DNA from: an uncultured Bacilli bacterium
GTDB taxonomy: Bacteria > Bacillota_I > Bacilli_A > RF39 > UBA660
Length of the DNA: 64,000 nucleotides
NCBI GenBank assembly: GCA_947630575.1
Contig: CANRIB010000004.1
Coordinates: forward strand, 3,027-67,026
Direction: 5' to 3'
Shown here: in pieces, positions 3,231-49,115 of the stretch
Numbering within the stretch: position 1 is the first letter of the stretch
Layout: every line of letters starts with the position of its first letter
Notes under the pieces: model-generated
Told to the model about the DNA's origin: nothing
The model's database searches: none
The model's input: the letters and a program-made list of their open reading frames with translations, nothing else
Made by a program: the position numbers and the translations under genes

Positions 3231-3326
3231 AGTGTTGTAGTTTTCTTGTATATGATATGCGGTAATTATAAAATTTCAGTGGATTATTTGTTAGGTAGAG
3301 TTAATAGTCCAAAGAGTTTTAAATAG
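3231..3326 (+). pseudogene. 3' remnant of an XRE-family HTH gene
   Basis: Translates to ...FLYMICGNYKISVDYLLGRVNSPKSFK*. This closely matches the C-terminus (FLYTICKKYNISADYLLGRTDNPKY) of the XRE gene at 12309-12776. There is an upstream in-frame stop and no N-terminal part. Confidence 0.5.
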
Positions 3327-10636: not shown

Positions 10637-12262
10637 ATGAAAAACTTAAAAAAATTAATGGGGTTAATGGTTGCAGGTGTGCTAGCTTTAGGTTTTAATA
10701 CGAATGTTAGAGCAGAAACAATAGATTTTGAAGCAGATAAGATTGAAGGTTTGAAAGGATTCGATTATTTAGGAGAAAATAGTCCAGCTAAGTTTAATGT
10801 TAGGTACGATGATCAAATGAATGTTTCAGTACTTGATATTACTACAAGTAATTTGAATGATGCGGCTATTCAAGCAATTTTGAATCATGCTCCTGGAAAT
10901 TCTGGTAGTCCAGCAGTATTAGGAACTTTATATTTTGGAATTGAAACAGGAATTACAGGAACACAGTTTAAAAAATATGGAGAGCCTTTCGTAGGAAATA
11001 ATTTTATGTCATTAGCAAAATCTGCAGCTGAAAGTGCTGTTGCTGAAGATAATCCTACAAATAATAATTTAGTTTGGGTTCCTCAAATAAAAGTTGATTA
11101 TTTTGATAAAGTGCAAAATAAGTTTGTTACTCTTAGTGGTTCTACAACAGGTGGTAAAACTGTAAAGGAAGCTATAGAAGAAAAATTTAAAGATGAAGAA
11201 AAAAGTTTTGATGAATTAGTTTATGGTAAAGATTACGTATTTTATGGCTATGAGGATAGATCTTATGTTTCTATAATTCAAAGTGATAGTGATGAATATA
11301 CTGATAAATATTATTTTTTAGTTAATATTAGTACTTCATTTCCAGTAGAAAGTGAAAATGTTGAAACTGGAGATGGTAAAGGTAATTTTAATAAAGAAGG
11401 ATATTTTCCAAGCTTAGAAACTGCTTTAGCTGCTTCTAATTATTCTAAGAATATTAAAATTAATGATAATATAGAAATTACAAAAGATTTGGAAATTCCT
11501 GCGGGAGTTACTGTTGATGCTACAAATGGTAAATTAACAATTAAGTCTGGAGCTAAACTTACAGTAAAAGGTACTGTTAAAGCTGATACAGAAAATATTG
11601 TTTTAGAAAATGGGGGAGAAGTTGAAGTTGAAGGCAGCGGTAGTTTACAAAATAATTCAGGAGCTAAACTTCATTTTGTTAATGTTAGTTCAACATTAGA
11701 AAATGGAATAATTACAGTAAGTCCTAAGTTAGCAAAATTAGGTGATACAGTAACAATTACTGTTACTCCTAATGAAGGTTATGAGCTTAAAGAAGGAAGC
11801 TTAAAAGTAACTAAAAAAGCCGTAGCTAGTGCAATATCTACAATAGCTCTTCCTATAGCAGAAGATAATGAGATTCCAATAACAGGATATACATTCCCAA
11901 TGCCAGATGGAGAAGTTGAAGTTACAGCAGAATTTGAAAAAATTGAAGAACAAATAAAAATTACTTTAGATATTGATGGCGATGTTAAAGAAAATTATGA
12001 AGTAACAAAAGGTTGGACTTTACAAGATTTATTAAATGATTTAAAAAATAAAGGTTATAGTATTACAGGATTTACTAATAAAGATGGGGAAGAATTAGAA
12101 TTAAGTTCTGAAATAACTGAAGGAATGTATTTAGTTGCAGTATTAGAAGATGAGGTAGTTACTGAAGCTCCTCAGACTTTAGATAATATATTGAAGTTTG
12201 TAGGAATTGGAGTTTTAGGATTAGGAACTCTTGGAGTAGCTGCTAAAAAATATTTATGCTAA
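10637..12262 (+). CDS. Secreted cell-surface protein with beta-helix / Ig-like segments and a C-terminal TM anchor
   Basis: Signal peptide (MGLMVAGVLALGFNTNVRA). C-terminal hydrophobic helix plus KKYLC tail preceded by APQTLD. No canonical LPXTG. Confidence 0.7.
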   Translation: MKNLKKLMGLMVAGVLALGFNTNVRAETIDFEADKIEGLKGFDYLGENSPAKFNVRYDDQMNVSVLDITTSNLNDAAIQAILNHAPGNSGSPAVLGTLYFGIETGITGTQFKKYGEPFVGNNFMSLAKSAAESAVAEDNPTNNNLVWVPQIKVDYFDKVQNKFVTLSGSTTGGKTVKEAIEEKFKDEEKSFDELVYGKDYVFYGYEDRSYVSIIQSDSDEYTDKYYFLVNISTSFPVESENVETGDGKGNFNKEGYFPSLETALAASNYSKNIKINDNIEITKDLEIPAGVTVDATNGKLTIKSGAKLTVKGTVKADTENIVLENGGEVEVEGSGSLQNNSGAKLHFVNVSSTLENGIITVSPKLAKLGDTVTITVTPNEGYELKEGSLKVTKKAVASAISTIALPIAEDNEIPITGYTFPMPDGEVEVTAEFEKIEEQIKITLDIDGDVKENYEVTKGWTLQDLLNDLKNKGYSITGFTNKDGEELELSSEITEGMYLVAVLEDEVVTEAPQTLDNILKFVGIGVLGLGTLGVAAKKYLC

Positions 12263-12283: not shown

Positions 12284-12320
12284 AAGTAATGGGAAAATAA
12301 AAATCTCATTACTTTTTTAA
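12284..12320. terminator. Bidirectional terminator between convergent genes
   Basis: AAAAAGTAATGGG...CTCATTACTTTTT hairpin flanked by A and T runs. Confidence 0.55.
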
Positions 12321-12776
12321 TTGTTTAATATATTTAGGATTGTCAGTTCTTCCTAAGAGATAGTCGGCAGAAATATTATATTTTTTACATATAGTGTATA
12401 GAAAAGGGGTTGCAATAATGTTTTTTCCTTTTTCATATGCACATATTACAGTTTTATCTGAGTTAATAACACTTGCTAATTTACCTTGTGTTAGTTTTTG
12501 TTCTTTTCGAAATTCTTTTAATCTACTACCTGATGTAATTTTATTTAATTTTTGATTATTGAAATTATTACTTTTTTTATTTGTTAAATTCAAAATATAA
12601 TCTAATGAAACATTAAAATAGTTGCAAAAATTGTATAAATGTTTAATGGGTATAGTTGTGTCTTCCGTTTCATAATGACTATATGTTATTGAAGATATTC
12701 CTAAATAATTTGCTATATCTTTTTGCATTATTTTGTTTTCTATTCTAATTTCTTTCATTTTGTTACCATAGTTCAT
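12309..12776 (-). CDS. XRE-family regulator with two tandem HTH domains
   Basis: Two HTH_3-like units (IMQKDIANYLGISSITYSHYE... and LTQGKLASVINSDKTVICAYE...), each ending in a DY(I/L)L motif. Divergent from paralog A. Confidence 0.85.
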   Translation of the reverse strand: MNYGNKMKEIRIENKIMQKDIANYLGISSITYSHYETEDTTIPIKHLYNFCNYFNVSLDYILNLTNKKSNNFNNQKLNKITSGSRLKEFRKEQKLTQGKLASVINSDKTVICAYEKGKNIIATPFLYTICKKYNISADYLLGRTDNPKYIKQLKK

Positions 12777-12850
12777 TTATCTCACCTGAAATAATTTTCT
12801 CATTAAATGTATTTTCTTAAAATCCTAGTGCCGAAATAGACAACTTTTTC

Positions 12851-12879
12851 TTGACTTTTAGTATAGGAGAGTATATAAT
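12851..12879 (+). promoter_or_regulatory. Sigma-A-type promoter for paralog A (TTGACT-17-TATAAT)
   Basis: Read directly. The homologous arrangement precedes paralog C on the minus strand (48885-48913). Confidence 0.55.
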
Positions 12880-12890
12880 TTTAGTATAAG

Positions 12891-12904
12891 TTAGAAATTT
12901 CTAA
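12891..12904. promoter_or_regulatory. Perfect palindrome TTAGAAATTTCTAA in the paralog A leader
   Basis: Conserved with one mismatch in the paralog C leader (48860-48873), at the same distance from the -10 box. Confidence 0.4.
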
Positions 12905-12944
12905 TATGATTGATAATAAATCAATTATAAAGAAGGGAAGATTA

Positions 12945-14324
12945 ATGAAGGTAGAGAAGTTAAGTAAAGGAAAGAGTAAGAAAATTATATTAGCTATAAC
13001 AATAATAGTATTAGCAATAGGAATAATATATATAACAAATAGCAAAGCAAAATATCAAGTAACCAAAAGTGTGCAAATAGTTAATGGAGTAATAAATTAT
13101 TCTAGAGCAGATTTTAGTTTGTTAGGAGTGTATCAGCAACATGAAAAGAGTAGTAGTACTTATGATAGTGTAAATAATGTTCCTACGTCTGGTTATGTAT
13201 TAAATGAAAATAAAACATATTGTACAATAGGCTCAACAAAATATGAGGGAAAAACAAATTATAATAAACAAGGAATAACAATAAATTATGCTGGAGGTAG
13301 TGTAACATTTGGAGGAGTAAAAACTGCCAATACAAAATGTTATTTGTATTTTGATATTACTGATAATATTCCACCAGCAGAACGTGTTACTCAATTAGGT
13401 TTAACAGTAAGCCAATCGGGATGTCCAACTTATCCAACTCCGACAATAAGTTCAGCAGAAAGTTCTGCTACATTATTTTGTAAAGGTCAAGACGACGATG
13501 GAGATACATATTATTTTAGAGGGAAAGCAGATAAGAATTGGGTAAAGATAGGAAATACATATTGGCGAATCATCCGAATAAATGGAGATGGAACAATAAG
13601 ATTAATATATAATGGAACAAGTGCAGTCACGACAGGAGTATCAACTCAATATAAAACTGGAGCTTTTAATTCTATTTTTGGTGATAATGCCTACGTAGGA
13701 TTAAAATATACGATAGGTGTAAGAAATGGATTTAATACTCCATCAGATATGTTTAATACATTAAATACATTTTACAATGAGTATTTTGGAAGTGGTAAGT
13801 CTTTAGTATCATATGCAAATAAATTAGACTCAAGTGCGGGATTTTGTGGAGACAGAACTAGTAATACAGATTATTTAGCTCAAACAACAAATAATACAGG
13901 CGGAACTGGAGCAAACGAAACATACTATGGAGGTAGACTAAGATTACTTAATTCAAAGAAACCAACATTTAAATGTCCAGATAAAACTAATGATTTGTAT
14001 ACAAAAACAGGAGCAACACAAGGAAATAAGTCATTAACCAATTCAATAGGTTTAATGACAGTGGATGAAGCAATGTATGCCGGAGGTTTTGGAGGACAAA
14101 ATAACGATGGTTATTGGTTATATACAAATCAAAGCTATTGGCTTATGTCTCCGTCTGGCTTTGGTGGTGGTGCTGCTAACATGTGCGTTTTGTATTCGGA
14201 TGGTACTCTCGGCAACTATAGTGTTAGCCTTGCGCATGGTGTGCGACCTGTAATAAATTTAAAATCAAATACTATATTTACAGGAAATGGAACTACGAGT
14301 AGTCCATTTGTAGTGCAATTATAA
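12945..14324 (+). CDS. Membrane-anchored surface protein, paralog A of a 3-member family (C-terminal lectin-like YW..SP...GVRPV domain)
   Basis: Start chosen by homology to the paralog C N-terminus (MKVEKLSKG.. vs MEFKKLERN..; shared AKYQVTKS(V/A)QIVNGVINY). Shared motifs: YYFRG, YWRIIRINGDGTIRLIY, AGFCGDR, FKC, GLMTVDEAMYAGG, YWLMSP, GVRPVINLK. Confidence 0.8.
   Translation: MKVEKLSKGKSKKIILAITIIVLAIGIIYITNSKAKYQVTKSVQIVNGVINYSRADFSLLGVYQQHEKSSSTYDSVNNVPTSGYVLNENKTYCTIGSTKYEGKTNYNKQGITINYAGGSVTFGGVKTANTKCYLYFDITDNIPPAERVTQLGLTVSQSGCPTYPTPTISSAESSATLFCKGQDDDGDTYYFRGKADKNWVKIGNTYWRIIRINGDGTIRLIYNGTSAVTTGVSTQYKTGAFNSIFGDNAYVGLKYTIGVRNGFNTPSDMFNTLNTFYNEYFGSGKSLVSYANKLDSSAGFCGDRTSNTDYLAQTTNNTGGTGANETYYGGRLRLLNSKKPTFKCPDKTNDLYTKTGATQGNKSLTNSIGLMTVDEAMYAGGFGGQNNDGYWLYTNQSYWLMSPSGFGGGAANMCVLYSDGTLGNYSVSLAHGVRPVINLKSNTIFTGNGTTSSPFVVQL
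14136..14252 (+). other. G+C-rich variable-region-like block in paralog A
   Basis: Local G+C is far above the flanks. Occupies the same position (YW.MSP to GVRPV) as the blocks in paralogs B and C. Confidence 0.45.
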
Positions 14325-14383: not shown

Positions 14384-14407
14384 GAGGGGATATTCTCCTC
14401 TTTTTTT
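14384..14407 (+). terminator. Intrinsic terminator after paralog A
   Basis: GAGGGGA-TAT-TCTCCTC hairpin followed by TTTTTTT. An additional 10-bp inverted repeat lies at 14334-14370. Confidence 0.6.
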
Positions 14408-29254: not shown

Positions 29255-29515
29255 TTAATTATTATTCTTAACTGGTTTATTATAAGAAATAATATCTGTT
29301 AAATCGCAATTTAAAACATAACATAATTTAGCAAGAACATCTCCATCATATCTAGCAATATTACCAGTTATATATCTTTCTAGGACTATATGATGCAAAC
29401 CAGTTCTTTTAGCAAGTTGGGTTTTAGTTAAGTTTCTTTCTTGCATTATTTTTTTAATACTACACGTGACTGTTCCATAATTTACATAAGTTATTATACT
29501 TTCTTGATTATTCAT
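29255..29515 (-). CDS. XRE-family HTH regulator
   Basis: 86 aa (LTKTQLAKRTGLHHIVLERY...LCYVLNCDLTDII). Divergent from paralog B. Confidence 0.8.
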   Translation of the reverse strand: MNNQESIITYVNYGTVTCSIKKIMQERNLTKTQLAKRTGLHHIVLERYITGNIARYDGDVLAKLCYVLNCDLTDIISYNKPVKNNN

Positions 29516-29650
29516 GATATCCTCCTAAATATATCTTAACAAAAATTACGTATATAGAAGAGACGTTTATATATTCGGTACAGAAATGCAAAAAAAGTAT
29601 ATACAATTAAAAAAAATTAAGTTATAATGTATAAAAATAGGAGTGATTAT

Positions 29651-31849
29651 ATGACTAAAGAAACTAAAAGATTATTTATTGTTGAAGGAATTATTTTGCT
29701 GATTGTTTTAACTATTGGTATTGGTTATGCTTTTTTATCAACAAGTGGTAAACAAGAATTAGCCAATACTTTTACAGCAGGTTGTTTAAGTATAACAATA
29801 GAAGAAGAGGGAAGAGCAATAGATTTAGAAAATGCTTATCCCATAACAGATATAGAAGGATTAGAACAAGATGGATATACTTTTAAAATAAAGAATAATT
29901 GTAGTAATGATACAAATTATCAAATTAATTTAGAATCATTAAGTAATCCAACAGCAGATACAACATTAAAAGCCGATTATGTAAGAGTATCCCTTTCAAG
30001 TGATACAATGGATAATTTAATAACAACATTAAAAGAAAATGATGTAGCAACATATCATTCAGAAAATGCTTATGTATCTTATAATCTTTATAGTGGAATA
30101 TTAAAAGGAAGTGCAAGTAAATCATTTACTTTAAAAGAATGGGTAGAATATAATACAACCAAAGAAGAAGGAGCAAGTAAAGAATATAAATCACAGATAA
30201 ATGTAGTAAGTGATACAAGAGTAGAAGTAACACCAAAACCAGAGATAACATTTGCTTATAGTGGAAATACGATAAAAGGAACAATAGCAGGTAGTGCAAC
30301 AGATATAACATATTGTGAAACAAAAGATAATAGATGTGAACCAAAACAAAATGGAGAAATACAAGAACAAACAACCTCAATAACATTAAATGAAGAATCA
30401 AAAACAAAAGAAGTAACAACCAAATTAGGAGTATTAAATGTATATCAAGATTATAAAAGAATGATATGTGCAAAATTGGATAATGGAAAGACAATATGCA
30501 GTAATCCAGATACAGGAAGTGGGACACCAGATTTTAGCATTAATAGTGATTACGCTGATAATGATTTCAAAGTATGTACATATAAGGGAATTAGTGTTAA
30601 CACAGGATATGCTCCAGAAGAAATGTGCCAGTTAGTTTTTGAAATAACTAGAAATGGTAGTTATTATTATCAAGATGGTTTAATGGAATATGAACTTAGA
30701 ATAAGTTCTGATTCTAAGCGTGTAGGTTTAGCTATTTGGGATGAAGAAAAACAAATATGTACTTACAATGGAAATGAAATCAAAACTTGGGGTGAACAAA
30801 GGATTAACCAAGAAAATTGCTTGTTTGCTTATGAACAAAATGGTAAATATATTACTTTTAATCTAATAGATGAAATGAAAGAGACTTATAATGCAGATAA
30901 TATAAATTTTTTAGGAGCGGGTACTTTAAGTACTGCTGTTGGAAAAACCGGAATATATGAAACAAAAGATGAAGAAGGAACAAGTTATTATTATAGAGGA
31001 GCAGTAGAAAATAATTATGTAGAGTTTGCAGGATTTTATTGGCGAATAATTAGGATAAATGGAAATGGTTCCATACGTTTAATTTATAGTGGAAAAAAAG
31101 ATGAAGTAAATGAAATAGGTAAAGAAACAATATTAAAAAATGGATATAAGGATACAAATGGTTATAAAATGATAACATTAAAAGATGAAAGAAAATATGG
31201 TACCTATAATGGAGATGTTAACGATAATGCCTATGTAGGATATATGTATGGAACACCTGGTTCAAATAATTATACTGATGCTCATGAAAATATAAATGAA
31301 AGTAATGTTAAGAAAGAATTAGATAATTGGTATATAGCAAATTTAAAACAAGTAGAAGATAAATTAGATACACAAGCCGGCTTTTGTAATGATAGAAGTT
31401 TAGCAGAAGGATATGAAAATGTTGGATATGGAACGAAAGAAACATATTATGGAGCATCGGATAGAATAAAAAATAAATATCAGCCAACCTTAAAATGCGT
31501 TAATAAAGATAATGATTATTTCACATGGAAGGGACATGCCAATACTGGTAATAAAGTATTAACCAATCCGATAGGATTAATCACAGCCGATGAAGCAATG
31601 TATGCTGGAGCGAATACTGTTCCGAATGATACTTATTATTTATATACAGGTCAGAATTATTGGACAATGTCTCCGTATGACTTTAACGGCAGCTATGCTG
31701 GCGTGTTCTGTGTGAGTTCGTTTGGCTACCTCGGCTACTACTACGTGGACAGCACGAACATCGGTGTGCGCCCAGTAGTAAATGTGGACCCTAATAAAGT
31801 AAGTATTTCTGGAACTGGTACTATAGATAATCCTTATCTTTTCTCTTAA
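29651..31849 (+). CDS. Surface protein paralog B: SipW-type signal peptide/TasA-like N-region plus the family core and C-terminal lectin-like domain
   Basis: Start MTKETKRL with a TAGGAG RBS (ORF track starts at 29627). GYAFLSTSGKQELANTFTAGCLSI resembles the SipW-cognate signal class. Core motifs: YYYRG, FYWRIIRINGNGSIRLIY, AGFCNDR, LKC, GLITADEAMYAG, YWTMSP, GVRPVVNV. Confidence 0.8.
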   Translation: MTKETKRLFIVEGIILLIVLTIGIGYAFLSTSGKQELANTFTAGCLSITIEEEGRAIDLENAYPITDIEGLEQDGYTFKIKNNCSNDTNYQINLESLSNPTADTTLKADYVRVSLSSDTMDNLITTLKENDVATYHSENAYVSYNLYSGILKGSASKSFTLKEWVEYNTTKEEGASKEYKSQINVVSDTRVEVTPKPEITFAYSGNTIKGTIAGSATDITYCETKDNRCEPKQNGEIQEQTTSITLNEESKTKEVTTKLGVLNVYQDYKRMICAKLDNGKTICSNPDTGSGTPDFSINSDYADNDFKVCTYKGISVNTGYAPEEMCQLVFEITRNGSYYYQDGLMEYELRISSDSKRVGLAIWDEEKQICTYNGNEIKTWGEQRINQENCLFAYEQNGKYITFNLIDEMKETYNADNINFLGAGTLSTAVGKTGIYETKDEEGTSYYYRGAVENNYVEFAGFYWRIIRINGNGSIRLIYSGKKDEVNEIGKETILKNGYKDTNGYKMITLKDERKYGTYNGDVNDNAYVGYMYGTPGSNNYTDAHENINESNVKKELDNWYIANLKQVEDKLDTQAGFCNDRSLAEGYENVGYGTKETYYGASDRIKNKYQPTLKCVNKDNDYFTWKGHANTGNKVLTNPIGLITADEAMYAGANTVPNDTYYLYTGQNYWTMSPYDFNGSYAGVFCVSSFGYLGYYYVDSTNIGVRPVVNVDPNKVSISGTGTIDNPYLFS
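31658..31777 (+). other. G+C-rich variable-region-like block in paralog B
   Basis: About 52% G+C by hand count in an otherwise AT-rich gene. Scaffold nucleotides are identical to the block in paralog C. Differences are concentrated in NNC/NNT codons. Confidence 0.55.
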
Positions 31850-47424: not shown

Positions 47425-48831
47425 TTAGCTTGGTACAAATGGACTTCCTGATTTTCCATTTCCTGTAAATGTTGTATCAGCCTTCAGATTTATTACTGGG
47501 CGCACACCATACGCGCTGTTCTCGCTGCCGAAAGTGAGGTTGCCATTCAAATTCACATAGAACACGTAAGCATAAGTGCCGCTAAACTTATACGGAGACA
47601 TTGTCCAATAGGCAGAATTTGTATATAAGTAATATGATTGATTATTGCTTCCTCCAAAGCCTCCTGCATATACTACTTCATCAGCTGTTATTAATCCTAC
47701 TGGATATGTTAAACTTTGTGTTCCTTTTTCTGCTTTTCCATATGTAAATAAATCCTCTTTATTTGTACATGTGAATATTGGGGCTTGTGGATTTTGCCAA
47801 CTTCCACCTTTATAGAATCTTATATAAGGAGCATAATATGTTGTTGTCGTTCCTGTTCCTCCCCCTGTAGTAGTTCCTGTATTATTTGTATATGATGTTC
47901 TATCTGCACAAAATCCTGCATTATTATCTATTTTACCATTTCCATTTGACCATTCGTCTAGTAGATTCGTTTTAAACCACTCATTTGCTCTATCTGCTGC
48001 ATAACTGTTTGTACCTTTTCCATGTACATTACTATCTGCATATTGATATCCTACATATTTATTATCATTAAATTTACCATCTGAAGTCGCATAATAAAAT
48101 GTATTTGCAGATCCAACTGTTATTTGAGTGCCTGTTCCTGTTGTTCCTGGTGGAGTAGTAGAATTCAATGTAGTTGTTCCTGCATATATTAATCTTATCG
48201 TTCCATCACCATTTATTCGGATGATTCTCCACCATATACTTTTATTATCACTTGTTGTTCCATATCTTACCCAATTATCATCTACTTTTCCTCTAAAATA
48301 ATATGTTGTTCCATTATCATCTGTTCCACTATACATGATTGAATTACCATTGCTATCTTTATGTTCTGAAGTATCTGTACTTGAAAAACTTGTTTGGCCT
48401 TGCTGTGGATTTCTGCTATTTACTAATTCAGTAATTGTTATTGGTTTTATTTTAAAATATAAAGTACATTTATCTCTTTTCTTTAGCTTACTAAATGTAT
48501 GATTACCACCTATTGTTTTTAATACTGCTCCTGTATCTTCGTGTGTATCGTCTATCATACATTTACTTTGGCTTTCGTCTATTTCATAACCAGTAGTTGG
48601 TACTTTATCTGTTATTTCATATCCTCCAGTATCATTTTCTTTTTGAATTTCAACTATCATAAAATCATATGGTTTATAGTTTATTACACCATTGACTATT
48701 TGAGCACTTTTGGTTACTTGATATTTGGCTCTTGACCTTAATGATACTACTGTTGTTATTATTGCTATTAATACAACTAAAACTAATAATACTTTTTTAG
48801 TATTATTTCGCTCTAACTTCTTAAATTCCAT
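47425..48831 (-). CDS. Membrane-anchored surface protein, paralog C (C-terminal lectin-like domain)
   Basis: 468 aa. N-terminus and leader are homologous to paralog A. Motifs: YYFRG, WWRIIRINGDGTIRLIY, AGFCADR, FTC, GLITADEVVYAGG, YWTMSP, GVRPVINLK. Confidence 0.8.
   Translation of the reverse strand: MEFKKLERNNTKKVLLVLVVLIAIITTVVSLRSRAKYQVTKSAQIVNGVINYKPYDFMIVEIQKENDTGGYEITDKVPTTGYEIDESQSKCMIDDTHEDTGAVLKTIGGNHTFSKLKKRDKCTLYFKIKPITITELVNSRNPQQGQTSFSSTDTSEHKDSNGNSIMYSGTDDNGTTYYFRGKVDDNWVRYGTTSDNKSIWWRIIRINGDGTIRLIYAGTTTLNSTTPPGTTGTGTQITVGSANTFYYATSDGKFNDNKYVGYQYADSNVHGKGTNSYAADRANEWFKTNLLDEWSNGNGKIDNNAGFCADRTSYTNNTGTTTGGGTGTTTTYYAPYIRFYKGGSWQNPQAPIFTCTNKEDLFTYGKAEKGTQSLTYPVGLITADEVVYAGGFGGSNNQSYYLYTNSAYWTMSPYKFSGTYAYVFYVNLNGNLTFGSENSAYGVRPVINLKADTTFTGNGKSGSPFVPS
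47494..47610 (-). other. G+C-rich variable-region-like block in paralog C
   Basis: About 47% G+C by hand count. The first 21 nt and last 15 nt are identical to block B. Internal differences are mostly at codon positions 1-2. Confidence 0.55.
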
Positions 48832-48884
48832 GACTTTGATTCCTTCCTTATCAATTATATTAGAAATTCCTAACTTATGCTAAA

Positions 48885-48913
48885 AGTATATCACATAAGC
48901 TAGCTAAGTGCAA
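48885..48913 (-). promoter_or_regulatory. Promoter TTGCAC-17-TATACT for paralog C
   Basis: Read on the minus strand. Same spacing to the conserved leader palindrome as in paralog A. Confidence 0.5.
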
Positions 48914-48965: not shown

Positions 48966-49115
48966 ATGAATAAAGATGTTATTTATGTTAGAATAGACGA
49001 GGAAATAAAAAAAGAGCTTGATATGATAGCTCTTGAAGAGAATAGAAGTTTAAATAATTTGATTGTTACTATTTTAATGCGTTATTTAGAAGATAGAAAG
49101 AAAAATAATAAATAA
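48966..49115 (+). CDS. Ribbon-helix-helix (CopG/Arc-like) DNA-binding protein, 49 aa
   Basis: GAGGTGGAG RBS. MNKDVIYVRIDEEIKKELDMIALEENRSLNNLIVTILMRYLE has the beta-alpha-alpha RHH pattern. Below the ORF-track length cutoff. Divergent from paralog C. Confidence 0.6.
   Translation: MNKDVIYVRIDEEIKKELDMIALEENRSLNNLIVTILMRYLEDRKKNNK

Follow-up and report, generated by a model that had tools for sequence, protein, structure and literature searches.

A genus-wide repertoire of retroelement-varied DUF6273 surface receptors, nearly every gene probably gated by a divergent small DNA-binding protein

The window analysed here, a 64,000-nucleotide stretch of contig CANRIB010000004.1 from an uncultured gut bacterium of the Bacilli, repeatedly pairs the gene of a lectin-tailed surface protein with a divergently oriented gene for a small DNA-binding regulator, which raises the questions of what these surface proteins are, why each should be accompanied by a regulator, and how two of them came to have related leaders when their regulators belong to different folds. 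The recurrence of this arrangement had been proposed in an earlier note, which counted three modules and a remnant. The recurrence held, all four elements were recovered at the positions given below, and the layout is conserved in other genomes; the copy number of three did not stand, as the genome carries about 54 paralogs of the surface protein. The reading that we consider probable is a genus-wide repertoire of DGR-varied receptors, in which nearly every gene would be gated by a divergent small DNA-binding protein acting mainly as a repressor.

Module A is composed of regulator A (12309-12776, minus strand), a 155-aa tandem-HTH XRE protein matching HTH_19 (82.9 bits, 1.5e-23) and HTH_3 (72.2 bits, 3.6e-20) in Pfam over two stretches each, and paralog A (12945-14324, plus strand), a type II membrane protein of 459 aa predicted to comprise a TM helix, a beta stalk, and a C-type-lectin-like DUF6273 domain. 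The open reading frame of paralog A was listed as 12906-14324(+); its real start is almost certainly 12945, because an RBS precedes this position and M14 forms the invariant start column. The upstream ATG at 12906 was rejected as a start, given that in-frame conservation is absent among leader variants. The predicted promoter of paralog A (TTGACT, a 17-nt spacer, and TATAAT; 12851-12879, plus strand) agrees with the consensus at 11/12 positions and is conserved across class-1 paralogs. It is followed by the palindrome TTAGAAATTTCTAA (12891-12904, plus strand), a candidate shared operator at about +5 to +18 of the predicted transcript, and by a second inverted repeat in the leader, TATGATTGAT-AATAA-ATCAATTATA (12905-12929, plus strand), directly 5' of the RBS, while an intrinsic terminator is predicted past the gene (14384-14400, plus strand). 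On the other side, the conserved box AATTTTCTCAT, which reads ATGAGAAAATT on the regulator strand (12793-12803, minus strand), lies directly 5' of the regulator RBS (12782-12787); it is kept in nearly all tandem-HTH modules of the genome and also in other species, and may be a -10-like element or a binding site. The remnant of a tandem-HTH regulator C-terminus at 3231-3326 (plus strand) reads VVFLYMICGNYKISVDYLLGRVNSPKSFK up to a stop and retains the motif ..LY.IC..Y.IS.DYLLGR...PK..K. It is homologous to the C-terminus of regulator A, as had been noted, but at about 59% identity the relationship is family-level and not the near-identity that had been claimed.

Module B differs in both of its members. 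Regulator B (29255-29515, minus strand) is an 86-aa single-HTH XRE protein matching HTH_26 in Pfam (62.1 bits, 5.9e-17), and paralog B (29651-31849, plus strand), which is 36% identical to paralog A, comprises 732 aa, its DUF6273 domain being preceded by an additional N-terminal region; its start is likely 29651 within the open reading frame 29627-31849(+). A SipW/TasA-like origin had been suggested for this N-terminal region, which is at most weakly TasA/camelysin-like: Peptidase_M73 (PF12389) matched 4 of 40 homologues of the region (best 1.5e-5), whereas paralog B itself gave no TasA/SipW-type match in Pfam or NCBIfam (PF12389, TIGR04088).

In module C, paralog C (47425-48831, minus strand; 468 aa, 44% identical to paralog A) faces a putative ribbon-helix-helix (RHH) protein of about 50 aa (48966-49115, plus strand; open reading frame from 48951/48966), a single-copy gene without a paralogue in the genome. 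Its matches to RHH models remained below the cut-offs (HicB 20.6 against 21 bits, RHH_5 17.7 against 26, RHH_1 16.4 against 20.5); a strand-helix-helix pattern is visible in its sequence. The paralog C promoter (TTGCAC, a 17-nt spacer, and TATACT; 48885-48913, minus strand) contains in its spacer the genome-unique sequence TTAGCTAGCTTA, with the core palindrome AGCTAGCT, and the leader carries the palindrome variant TTAGGAATTTCTAA (48860-48873, minus strand). The promoters and leaders of A and C align as related sequences, in agreement with the earlier proposal, and the palindromes lie exactly at the positions given for them, 12891-12904 and, on the coding strand of C, 48873-48860, each 11 nt past its -10 box. 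The contrast between an XRE and a putative RHH partner is equally real and is explained by a sharp break in homology between module C and its sibling C12_7455: the two are 98-99% identical beginning with the first base past the -10 box, and upstream of that point they are unrelated, a pattern by which we identify module C as the product of a promoter and regulator swap.

A genome-wide search revealed 54 paralogs of the surface lectin family in the 1.33-Mb genome (27% GC), which together with their partner regulators make up about 7.8% of its DNA. At 42 of 47 evaluable transcription units, a small DNA-binding protein is encoded divergently, 50-170 nt upstream, the partners being 41 XRE genes (40 plus the C27 case) and the single putative RHH gene; 28 of the 41 XRE regulators are tandem-HTH proteins of about 150 aa. 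Five paralogs, all with enough upstream sequence, have no regulator. Conversely, 40 of the 62 XRE-like open reading frames of the genome have a paralog as divergent neighbour, and the pairing is far beyond chance. The family was present in all 24 congeneric genomes sampled (10-73 copies each), among which the MAG 'Mycoplasma sp. CAG:776' is apparently included, whereas the 16 other genera sampled lacked it. Adjacency to a regulator extends across species as well, with a divergent XRE gene at 20 of 28 sampled loci, and GCA_000438195.1 and further metagenome contigs showed the same module layout.

The core of the surface protein had been described as unassignable and its tail as a separate part; our searches replace that description. 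The AlphaFold2 model of paralog A (pLDDT 88.7) places a TM helix at residues 11-33 and a lectin-like domain at 176-459, and the only significant PDB match found with Foldseek was 9qa6 (E 3.4e-5, probability 1.00, 319 columns; sequence identity 17%), for which the TM-scores of 0.25/0.15 are low because both chains are multi-domain. Classical lectins (mannose-binding protein, CD23) gave weak, short matches with the whole model (E > 1), and a sequence-profile search of the PDB returned no relative. The N-terminal domain of 9qa6 is an enlarged C-type-lectin-like domain of about twice the usual size (PMC12237041) and is annotated as DUF6273 (PMC12402451). Against the PF19789 cut-off of 23.5 bits, paralogs A and C scored 17.8 and 21.2 over profile positions 126-172 only and B gave no match, while at E <= 0.01 the profile matched 47/69 A-type and 11/40 B-type homologues. 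Precomputed PF19789 matches exist on several homologues. By the homologue matches and the modelled fold, core and tail are one enlarged, divergent C-type-lectin-like DUF6273 domain, which belongs to a named but functionally uncharacterised family with over 10,000 representatives when clustered at 50% identity. The solved DUF6273 domain is that of the Thomasclavelia ramosa IgA peptidase (IgAse/ThomasA), where, unlike in the paralogs, it is joined to an M64 metallopeptidase and a sortase anchor, and no variable region or DGR has been reported. The N-terminal domain of IgAse is dispensable for IgA cleavage in vitro, and no function can therefore be transferred to the paralogs.

A property absent from the earlier note concerns the C-terminal tips. 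The variable region of paralog B (31667-31777, plus strand) differs from the template C1:69345-69452 at 16 positions, 15 of which are template adenines, and further paralogs gave 16/17, 17/18, and 12/13 mismatches at template A; genome-wide, the figure was 392/618 between variable regions and templates. The signal is partial in paralog C (47494-47601, minus strand; 12/20 against the same template). In paralog A, the matching region (14145-14248, plus strand) is 68% identical to C1:69345-69448, with 19/33 mismatches at template A, and the tip is either a diverged variable region or one whose template lies outside the assembly. Three RVT_1 matches above the cut-off were found in the genome, including a 371-aa frame (C32:6236-6961) adjoining a module. 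We conclude from this signature in their C-terminal tips that the paralogs are DGR variable proteins. DUF6273 is known as a DGR target domain in gut phages (PMC10743442; PMC11792537). Among DGR variable proteins with a C-type-lectin fold, of which Bordetella phage Mtd is the prototype, these DUF6273 targets (tentaclins and Faecalibacterium prophage targets) have a PF19789-like domain in common with the paralogs, as well as a variable region at the C-terminal end of the domain and adenine-specific differences from the template. The phage targets are tail proteins, whereas the paralogs are encoded in the chromosome and anchored in the membrane at the cell surface; the number of targets, about 54 in a 1.3-Mb genome and served by many stand-alone templates, also sets them apart from the phage DGR systems. 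Most descriptions of DGR systems show one or a few variable proteins encoded next to the retroelement, and to our knowledge the control of target expression is largely unexplored. A divergent regulator for each target gene was not found described in the DGR literature searched, nor was a gated repertoire of variable receptors of this kind in the searchable literature.

Regarding the sites at which the regulators could act, the palindrome TTAGAAATTTCTAA occurs in near-exact form (<=1 mismatch) 26 times in the genome, of which 23 copies lie upstream of paralogs, at about +5 to +18 of their promoters, and it occurs in other species too. A lone 7+7 palindrome is not significant against shuffled AT-rich DNA (p ~0.4); what is significant is that it stands at a fixed position ahead of 23 paralogs, though the copies share descent from a common promoter. 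A block of about 275 nt around it shows a mean nucleotide identity of 75%, compared to 58-59% in the flanking CDS, and since the whole block is conserved, the conservation of the palindrome is inseparable from that of the promoter, the leader, and the signal anchor. When the longest inverted repeats and repeated words of each intergenic region were compared with shuffles, p <= 0.05 was reached in only 4/40 and 2/40 regions, and the claim that any single palindrome exceeds chance was dropped. The tandem-HTH modules showed no repeat enrichment outside the conserved block; enrichment over shuffles was observed only in the ten single-HTH modules taken together (p-values combined by hand with Fisher's method, ~7e-4). 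In these modules, module-specific half-sites recur in the -35/-10 spacer and the leader, and none of the private palindromes occurs a second time in the genome. As far as sequence comparison can tell, the private palindromes track the recognition helix of the regulator across species: the helix SKSSIEKYEYG goes with CGTAAnAT..ATTACG (C3_71903 of our genome and L043), and SRHGIKNIETG goes with AAGGTA..TACC (L027 and L042). The C15 module of our genome has GGTAC repeats.

The most likely explanation is that operator-bound repressors gate each receptor gene. According to this model, each genome would hold about 54 monocistronic genes, each for a type II membrane-anchored surface protein with a DUF6273 ectodomain, whose C-terminal ~35 codons would be rewritten by the DGR, with template RNA genes at other loci of the genome as the source. 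The regulator would bind inverted-repeat operators in the -35/-10 spacer and/or at about +5 to +20 of the receptor promoter and would act mainly as a repressor of its neighbour. Some 26 tandem-HTH modules have in common the half-site TTAGAAA, arranged head-to-head (TTAGAAATTTCTAA) or tail-to-tail (TTTCTAATATATTAGAAA), which makes cross-regulation possible, while the private, genome-unique operators of about ten single-HTH modules and the RHH module would permit independent switching. The 28 tandem-HTH regulators have a mean identity of 44%, with a modest difference in conservation between HTH2 (0.52) and HTH1 (0.40); so many divergent regulators facing one common operator are awkward for gene-specific control. 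A further-reaching version, which we put forward only tentatively and regard as rather improbable, is a two-layer repertoire in which the DGR-rewritten, ligand-binding tips of about 50 receptors are combined with partly orthogonal repressor-operator pairs that would choose the receptors displayed by each cell, through private operators for some genes and a common, cross-repressing operator for the others, with variegated or mutually exclusive expression as the outcome.

The leader repeats could instead act in the RNA, as hairpins affecting mRNA stability or translation, with the XRE proteins regulating other genes or themselves. The predicted folds of the paralog A leader (-9.8 kcal/mol, z = -2.5) and of an L024-type leader (-21.7 kcal/mol, z = -3.5) lend this some weight, whereas the paralog C leader gave no fold signal (z = 0.26) and TTAGAAATTTCTAA, being loopless, makes a poor hairpin. 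Hairpins near the RBS are kept all the same: each of three class-1 leader variants has a different small one directly 5' of it, and the leader families of other species, which differ, have one at the equivalent place. Against an RNA role stand the half-sites of the single-HTH modules, which are also found in the -35/-10 spacer, ahead of the transcription start, and follow the recognition helix across species; moreover, an Rfam scan of the window returned one tRNA only and no family in the leaders. We consider this explanation unlikely. Similarly doubtful is the view that the small regulators are activators or anti-repressors needed to turn on the neighbouring receptor gene. Small XRE and RHH proteins encoded divergently can act as activators, and several single-HTH module promoters are weaker than the near-consensus tandem-HTH target promoters; however, a promoter such as TTGACT-17-TATAAT should need no activator, and the candidate operators overlap the spacer of the core promoter or the initial ~20 bases of the transcript, where repressors classically act.

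That the modules simply arose by duplication of whole units was rejected, as the phylogenies of regulators and targets do not follow each other (Mantel r = 0.16, p = 0.057; nearest neighbours were the same in 3/28). In class-2 targets, near-identical 5' ends stand behind unrelated regulators. Recombination and gene conversion may move receptor genes between regulated expression sites, and such shuffling would account for the common leader of A and C behind regulators of different folds. The pairing has been retained after promoter and regulator swaps despite the lack of co-divergence, which speaks against regarding the adjacency as a hitch-hiking relic of an amplified phage cassette (an immunity-type XRE gene with a DGR receptor-binding protein) with no present regulatory link. 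A phage origin is suggested by the gut phages from which DUF6273 DGR targets are best known and by the XRE proteins themselves, which are typical phage repressors and whose top NCBIfam match, below the cut-off, was the RstR phage repressor family. The modules, however, are dispersed among housekeeping genes, without phage genes near them in our genome, GCA_000438195.1, or the metagenome contigs; their layout is kept across at least 24 species with intact open reading frames and conserved spacing, and the receptors have N-terminal membrane anchors and not tail-fibre modules, which leaves the relic quite improbable. Control of retroelement activity at the adjacent target (e.g., of cDNA access to the variable region) instead of expression is very improbable, for although the pairing singles out DGR target genes, some 1.3 kb separates the regulators and candidate operators, which are 5', from the 3' variable region, known DGR homing determinants are 3' of the variable region, and the template RNA genes have their own promoters, at which no TTAGAAA operator was found. 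Co-regulation of templates and targets through that site was rejected on the same ground.

When compared to known systems, repressor gating of the receptor genes would resemble the divergent XRE (Cro/CI-type) units of phages and Firmicutes in its small HTH protein, divergent genes, and inverted repeats overlapping the promoter. Unlike those units, the one described here has reached about 41 copies within a single small genome; its regulators are mostly tandem-HTH single chains, it lacks a sensor or peptidase partner, and all of its cargo genes belong to one paralogous receptor family. Bacteroides capsule loci (UpxY/UpxZ) and Mycoplasma vsp/vsa are large paralogous surface repertoires of host-associated bacteria with per-locus control and conserved 5' regions. 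The size of the repertoire, the per-locus control, and the conserved 5' regions are common to these systems and the paralogs; in contrast, control here is apparently exerted by trans-acting repressors, and diversity arises through retroelement mutagenesis and not through cassette inversion.

These results assign about 40 of some 60 XRE genes one-to-one to receptor targets and place DUF6273, a large family, in a cellular setting and not only in phage tails. Provided that the regulators gate expression, the genome would contain dozens of small repressor-operator pairs coupled to hypervariable binding domains, a natural library in which some pairs are apparently orthogonal and which would offer synthetic biology a source of compact orthogonal repressors. 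For DGR biology, gating would mean selection on which variant is displayed, and it would bear on how reduced-genome gut symbionts cope with changing host or phage ligands. Should the two-layer reading also be true, the repertoire would be a bacterial analogue of receptor choice on top of somatic hypermutation.

The open reading frames described in the earlier note were all found as described. Module A is composed of a 155-aa tandem XRE regulator on the minus strand (12309-12776), containing two XRE-type HTH domains (HTH_19, 1.5e-23; HTH_3, 3.6e-20), and the divergent paralog A. Judging from the sequence, translation of paralog A almost certainly begins at the ATG at 12945, because the ribosome-binding site AAGAAGGGAAG precedes it; an upstream ATG at 12906 was rejected since its frame is not kept among sister copies. 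Paralog A has its own near-consensus promoter (TTGACT-17-TATAAT, 12851-12879, plus strand) and an intrinsic terminator at its 3' side (14384-14400), and is therefore monocistronic. The palindrome TTAGAAATTTCTAA lies at 12891-12904, 11 nt past the -10 box. Module C shows the same layout on the opposite strand, with the promoter TTGCAC-17-TATACT (48913-48885, minus strand) followed, after an identical gap of 11 nt, by the palindrome TTAGGAATTTCTAA (48873-48860, minus strand), in agreement with the earlier placement of this element just downstream of the -10 box in both modules. The partner of paralog C encodes a protein of about 50 aa (48966-49115) for which all ribbon-helix-helix (RHH) matches were sub-threshold. 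Module B consists of an 86-aa single-HTH regulator (HTH_26, 5.9e-17) and the 732-aa paralog B; its intergenic region (29516-29650) contains no leader palindrome of the A/C kind. In that region, A-runs (A7 and A8) flank a putative -35/-10 pair, and (A)CGTWTATATA repeats occur. The regulator remnant at 3231-3326 (VVFLYMICGNYKISVDYLLGRVNSPKSFK, followed by a stop) corresponds to the conserved C-terminus of tandem-HTH regulators, which confirms its kinship, while the identity to regulator A is about 59%, short of the near-identity that had been proposed. Directly upstream of module A, a gene at 10637-12262 (plus strand) encodes a 541-aa secreted protein of another surface-protein family, with a signal peptide, an InlB B-repeat-like domain (Flg_new_2, 6.2e-10), and a C-terminal hydrophobic anchor.

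A protein search of the source genome (1.33 Mb, 27% GC, 62 contigs, 92% complete) revealed 54 paralogous ORFs, which account for 6.6% of the DNA, or 7.8% when paired regulators are included. Pairing was assessed from the upstream side of each paralog combined with an iterative HMM search for XRE proteins. A divergent XRE gene was located 42-171 nt upstream of 40 paralogs; one further paralog, on contig C27, had an XRE gene upstream of a split N-terminal piece, and one, paralog C, had the RHH partner. Three were the second gene of a tandem pair, four were too near a contig end to judge, and five had no regulator despite enough upstream sequence, so that 42 of 47 evaluable units were paired. The divergent partners represent 40 of the 62 XRE-like ORFs of the genome and comprise 28 tandem-HTH proteins of ~150 aa and about twelve single-HTH proteins of 71-93 aa. 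The three tandem paralog pairs (C5:66115-69926, C10:70-3455, and C1:43060-46516) are separated by 2-3 nt, and in none of them does the downstream gene have its own regulator or promoter; they are therefore probably two-gene operons. Outside the window, eleven contigs (C11, C33, C26, C20, C5, C18, C38, C45, C7, C10, and C21) start 27-362 nt, mostly about 50-115 nt, 3' of a paralog stop codon, and the assembly thus breaks at a repeat located 3' of these genes. Three contig ends share an identical stretch of 25 nt.

The AlphaFold2 model of paralog A, built from 69 homologues, was confident (pLDDT 88.7) and comprises a transmembrane helix (residues 11-33), a small beta domain (57-138), and a large alpha/beta domain (176-459), the latter containing both the "core" motifs and the "lectin tail" of the earlier note. 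The juxtamembrane stretch AKYQVTKSxQIVNGxxNY (residues 34-52; 13044-13100), disordered in the model (pLDDT < 50), is nearly invariant genus-wide and may act in sorting, processing or docking. The core had been regarded as unassignable. Foldseek returned one significant match in the PDB, the T. ramosa IgA peptidase 9qa6 (E 3.4e-5, 319 columns), whose 290-residue N-terminal domain is an enlarged C-type-lectin-like domain (PMC12237041) carrying a DUF6273 annotation (PMC12402451). Paralogs A and C match only the last third of PF19789, with a score under the cut-off, and this profile is matched by 47 of 69 A-type and 11 of 40 B-type homologues. The fold match and the homologue matches therefore make the core assignable and, on the strength of sequence and model, we identify it as a divergent DUF6273 domain. 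The DUF6273-like family is large: a profile search at E <= 1e-3 yielded 10,324 cluster representatives, including giant metagenome proteins with 8 (P0171, 3528 aa) and 11 (P0172, 4905 aa) tandem DUF6273-like stretches. The TasA/SipW-like N-terminus suggested for paralog B is weakly supported: B itself gave no match, and Peptidase_M73 was found in 4 of 40 homologues.

Work on gut phages describes DUF6273 as a target domain of diversity-generating retroelements (DGRs), the C-terminal end of which contains the variable region (PMC10743442, PMC11792537). In this genome, about 17 non-coding places resemble the last 260 nt of the paralogs (72-88% identity), and 392 of 618 paralog/template mismatches fall at template adenines, a pattern by which the family members are predicted DGR targets. 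The bias was 15/16 in paralog B (31667-31777), 16/17, 17/18, and 12/13 in other paralogs, and 12/20 in paralog C (47494-47601). For the equivalent region of paralog A (14145-14248; 68% identity to the best template, 19/33 mismatches at A), either the variable region is drifting or the assembly lacks its template. Three matches to the reverse-transcriptase profile RVT_1 exceeded the cut-off (C32:6236-6961, in a 371-aa frame; C51:4058-4678; C18:18996-19367), the first located 1.3 kb from the module C32_8299_9720; they may be of the DGR or the group II intron subtype. Stand-alone RNA genes carrying template repeats lie at C1:7899-8303, C1:53089-53168, C1:69345-69750, C1:72879-72950, C11:26878-26983, C13:24269-24685, C16:22094-22829, and C2:32546-32654. 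Each has a promoter of its own with a -10 box, begins with a conserved GGTTAATCT on its 5' side, and ends in a conserved 3' domain of ~60 nt with a hairpin behind it. All of these template genes are outside the window, several adjoin regulator-receptor modules, and the TTAGAAA palindrome is absent from them.

Upstream DNA could be aligned throughout in 25 paralogs (class-1), where the regulator start codon and RBS are followed by the box ATGAGAAAATT (regulator strand), about 45 variable nt, TTGACT-17-TATAAT, the palindrome, a second small inverted repeat, and the RBS and start codon of the paralog. The box ATGAGAAAATT(A), at 12793-12803 and in about 25 other modules, lies 6-8 nt 5' of the regulator RBS, is kept across modules and species, and might serve as an extended -10-like element or be recognised by a protein. 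Mean nucleotide identity was 75% for the block from -35 to about codon 55, 58% for the regulator genes, and 59% for the ectodomain coding sequence; since the whole block is conserved, conservation of the palindrome is inseparable from it. A single 7+7 palindrome is not significant here on its own (p about 0.4), but where its copies lie is striking: of 26 genomic copies with at most one mismatch, 23 lie upstream of paralogs, several other species keep it, and three further tandem-HTH modules bear the opposite half-site arrangement TTTCTAATATATTAGAAA. Single-HTH modules have their own unrelated repeats, each unique in the genome; such a repeat is often present once between the -35 and -10 boxes and recurs in palindromic form in the leader. 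Taken singly they are statistically weak, and Fisher's method, applied by hand to ten p-values from these modules, gave ~7e-4. That they are operators is best supported by comparing recognition helices: regulators of two species share the helix SKSSIEKYEYG and each faces CGTAAnAT..ATTACG sites, although the remainder of the intergenic DNA is dissimilar, and two regulators with SRHGIKNIETG both face AAGGTA..TACC. The leader repeats might instead work at the RNA level, a reading supported by leader RNA folding and by the small inverted repeat of class-1 leaders, and opposed by the spacer position of single-HTH repeats and the pairing of one helix with one site in different species.

The regulators share a mean identity of 44%, and co-divergence of regulator and target was not found (Mantel r = 0.16, p = 0.057). 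Paralog C and its sibling C12_7455 are 98-99% identical from the first base past the -10 box into the coding sequence, over at least its first 300 nt, whereas further upstream they are unrelated, C12_7455 having a standard tandem-HTH regulator and C the RHH. Likewise, class-2 paralogs have near-identical 5' coding ends and unrelated regulators. Receptor genes, as their sequences indicate, have evidently moved or been converted between differently regulated sites, which accounts for the homologous leaders of A and C beside regulators of different folds, the puzzle raised in the earlier note. Conservation in tandem-HTH proteins is higher in the second HTH and the C-terminal tail than in the first HTH (0.52 vs 0.40 identity), a pattern compatible with one HTH recognising the common site and the other a site that varies.

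The family was found in 24 of 24 other sampled species of the genus (10-73 matches each) and, at E <= 1e-10, was not found in any of 16 further genera from the same order or class. Regulator adjacency also extends beyond this genome, a divergent XRE gene being present at 20 of 28 loci from congeners. Public contigs, such as GCA_000438195.1, deposited as "Mycoplasma sp. CAG:776", repeat the module layout with Pfam-annotated tandem-HTH neighbours. In a MAG of a sporulating member of the Clostridia, a homologue with 32% identity had no such regulator neighbour. The relatives retrieved were "uncultured Bacilli" MAGs of rabbit gut origin. The kinds of components are already known, namely C-type-lectin-fold DGR targets, XRE repressors, and variable surface repertoires; in the literature retrieved, we found no paper tying DGR targets to dedicated neighbouring regulators and none on DGRs in this lineage.

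Taken with moderate confidence, our reading is that each regulator represses the gene beside it by binding the repeats that overlap the promoter or the start of transcription. It is preferred, as the most economical, to less probable readings in which the regulators activate rather than repress the neighbour, the adjacency is a hitch-hiking relic of a phage cassette, or the regulators control retrohoming. Under repression, the regulator would bind repeats overlapping the promoter or transcription start of the adjacent receptor gene, the bound protein would keep that gene repressed, and the display of each hypervariable receptor would be gated separately, or collectively for the set sharing an operator.
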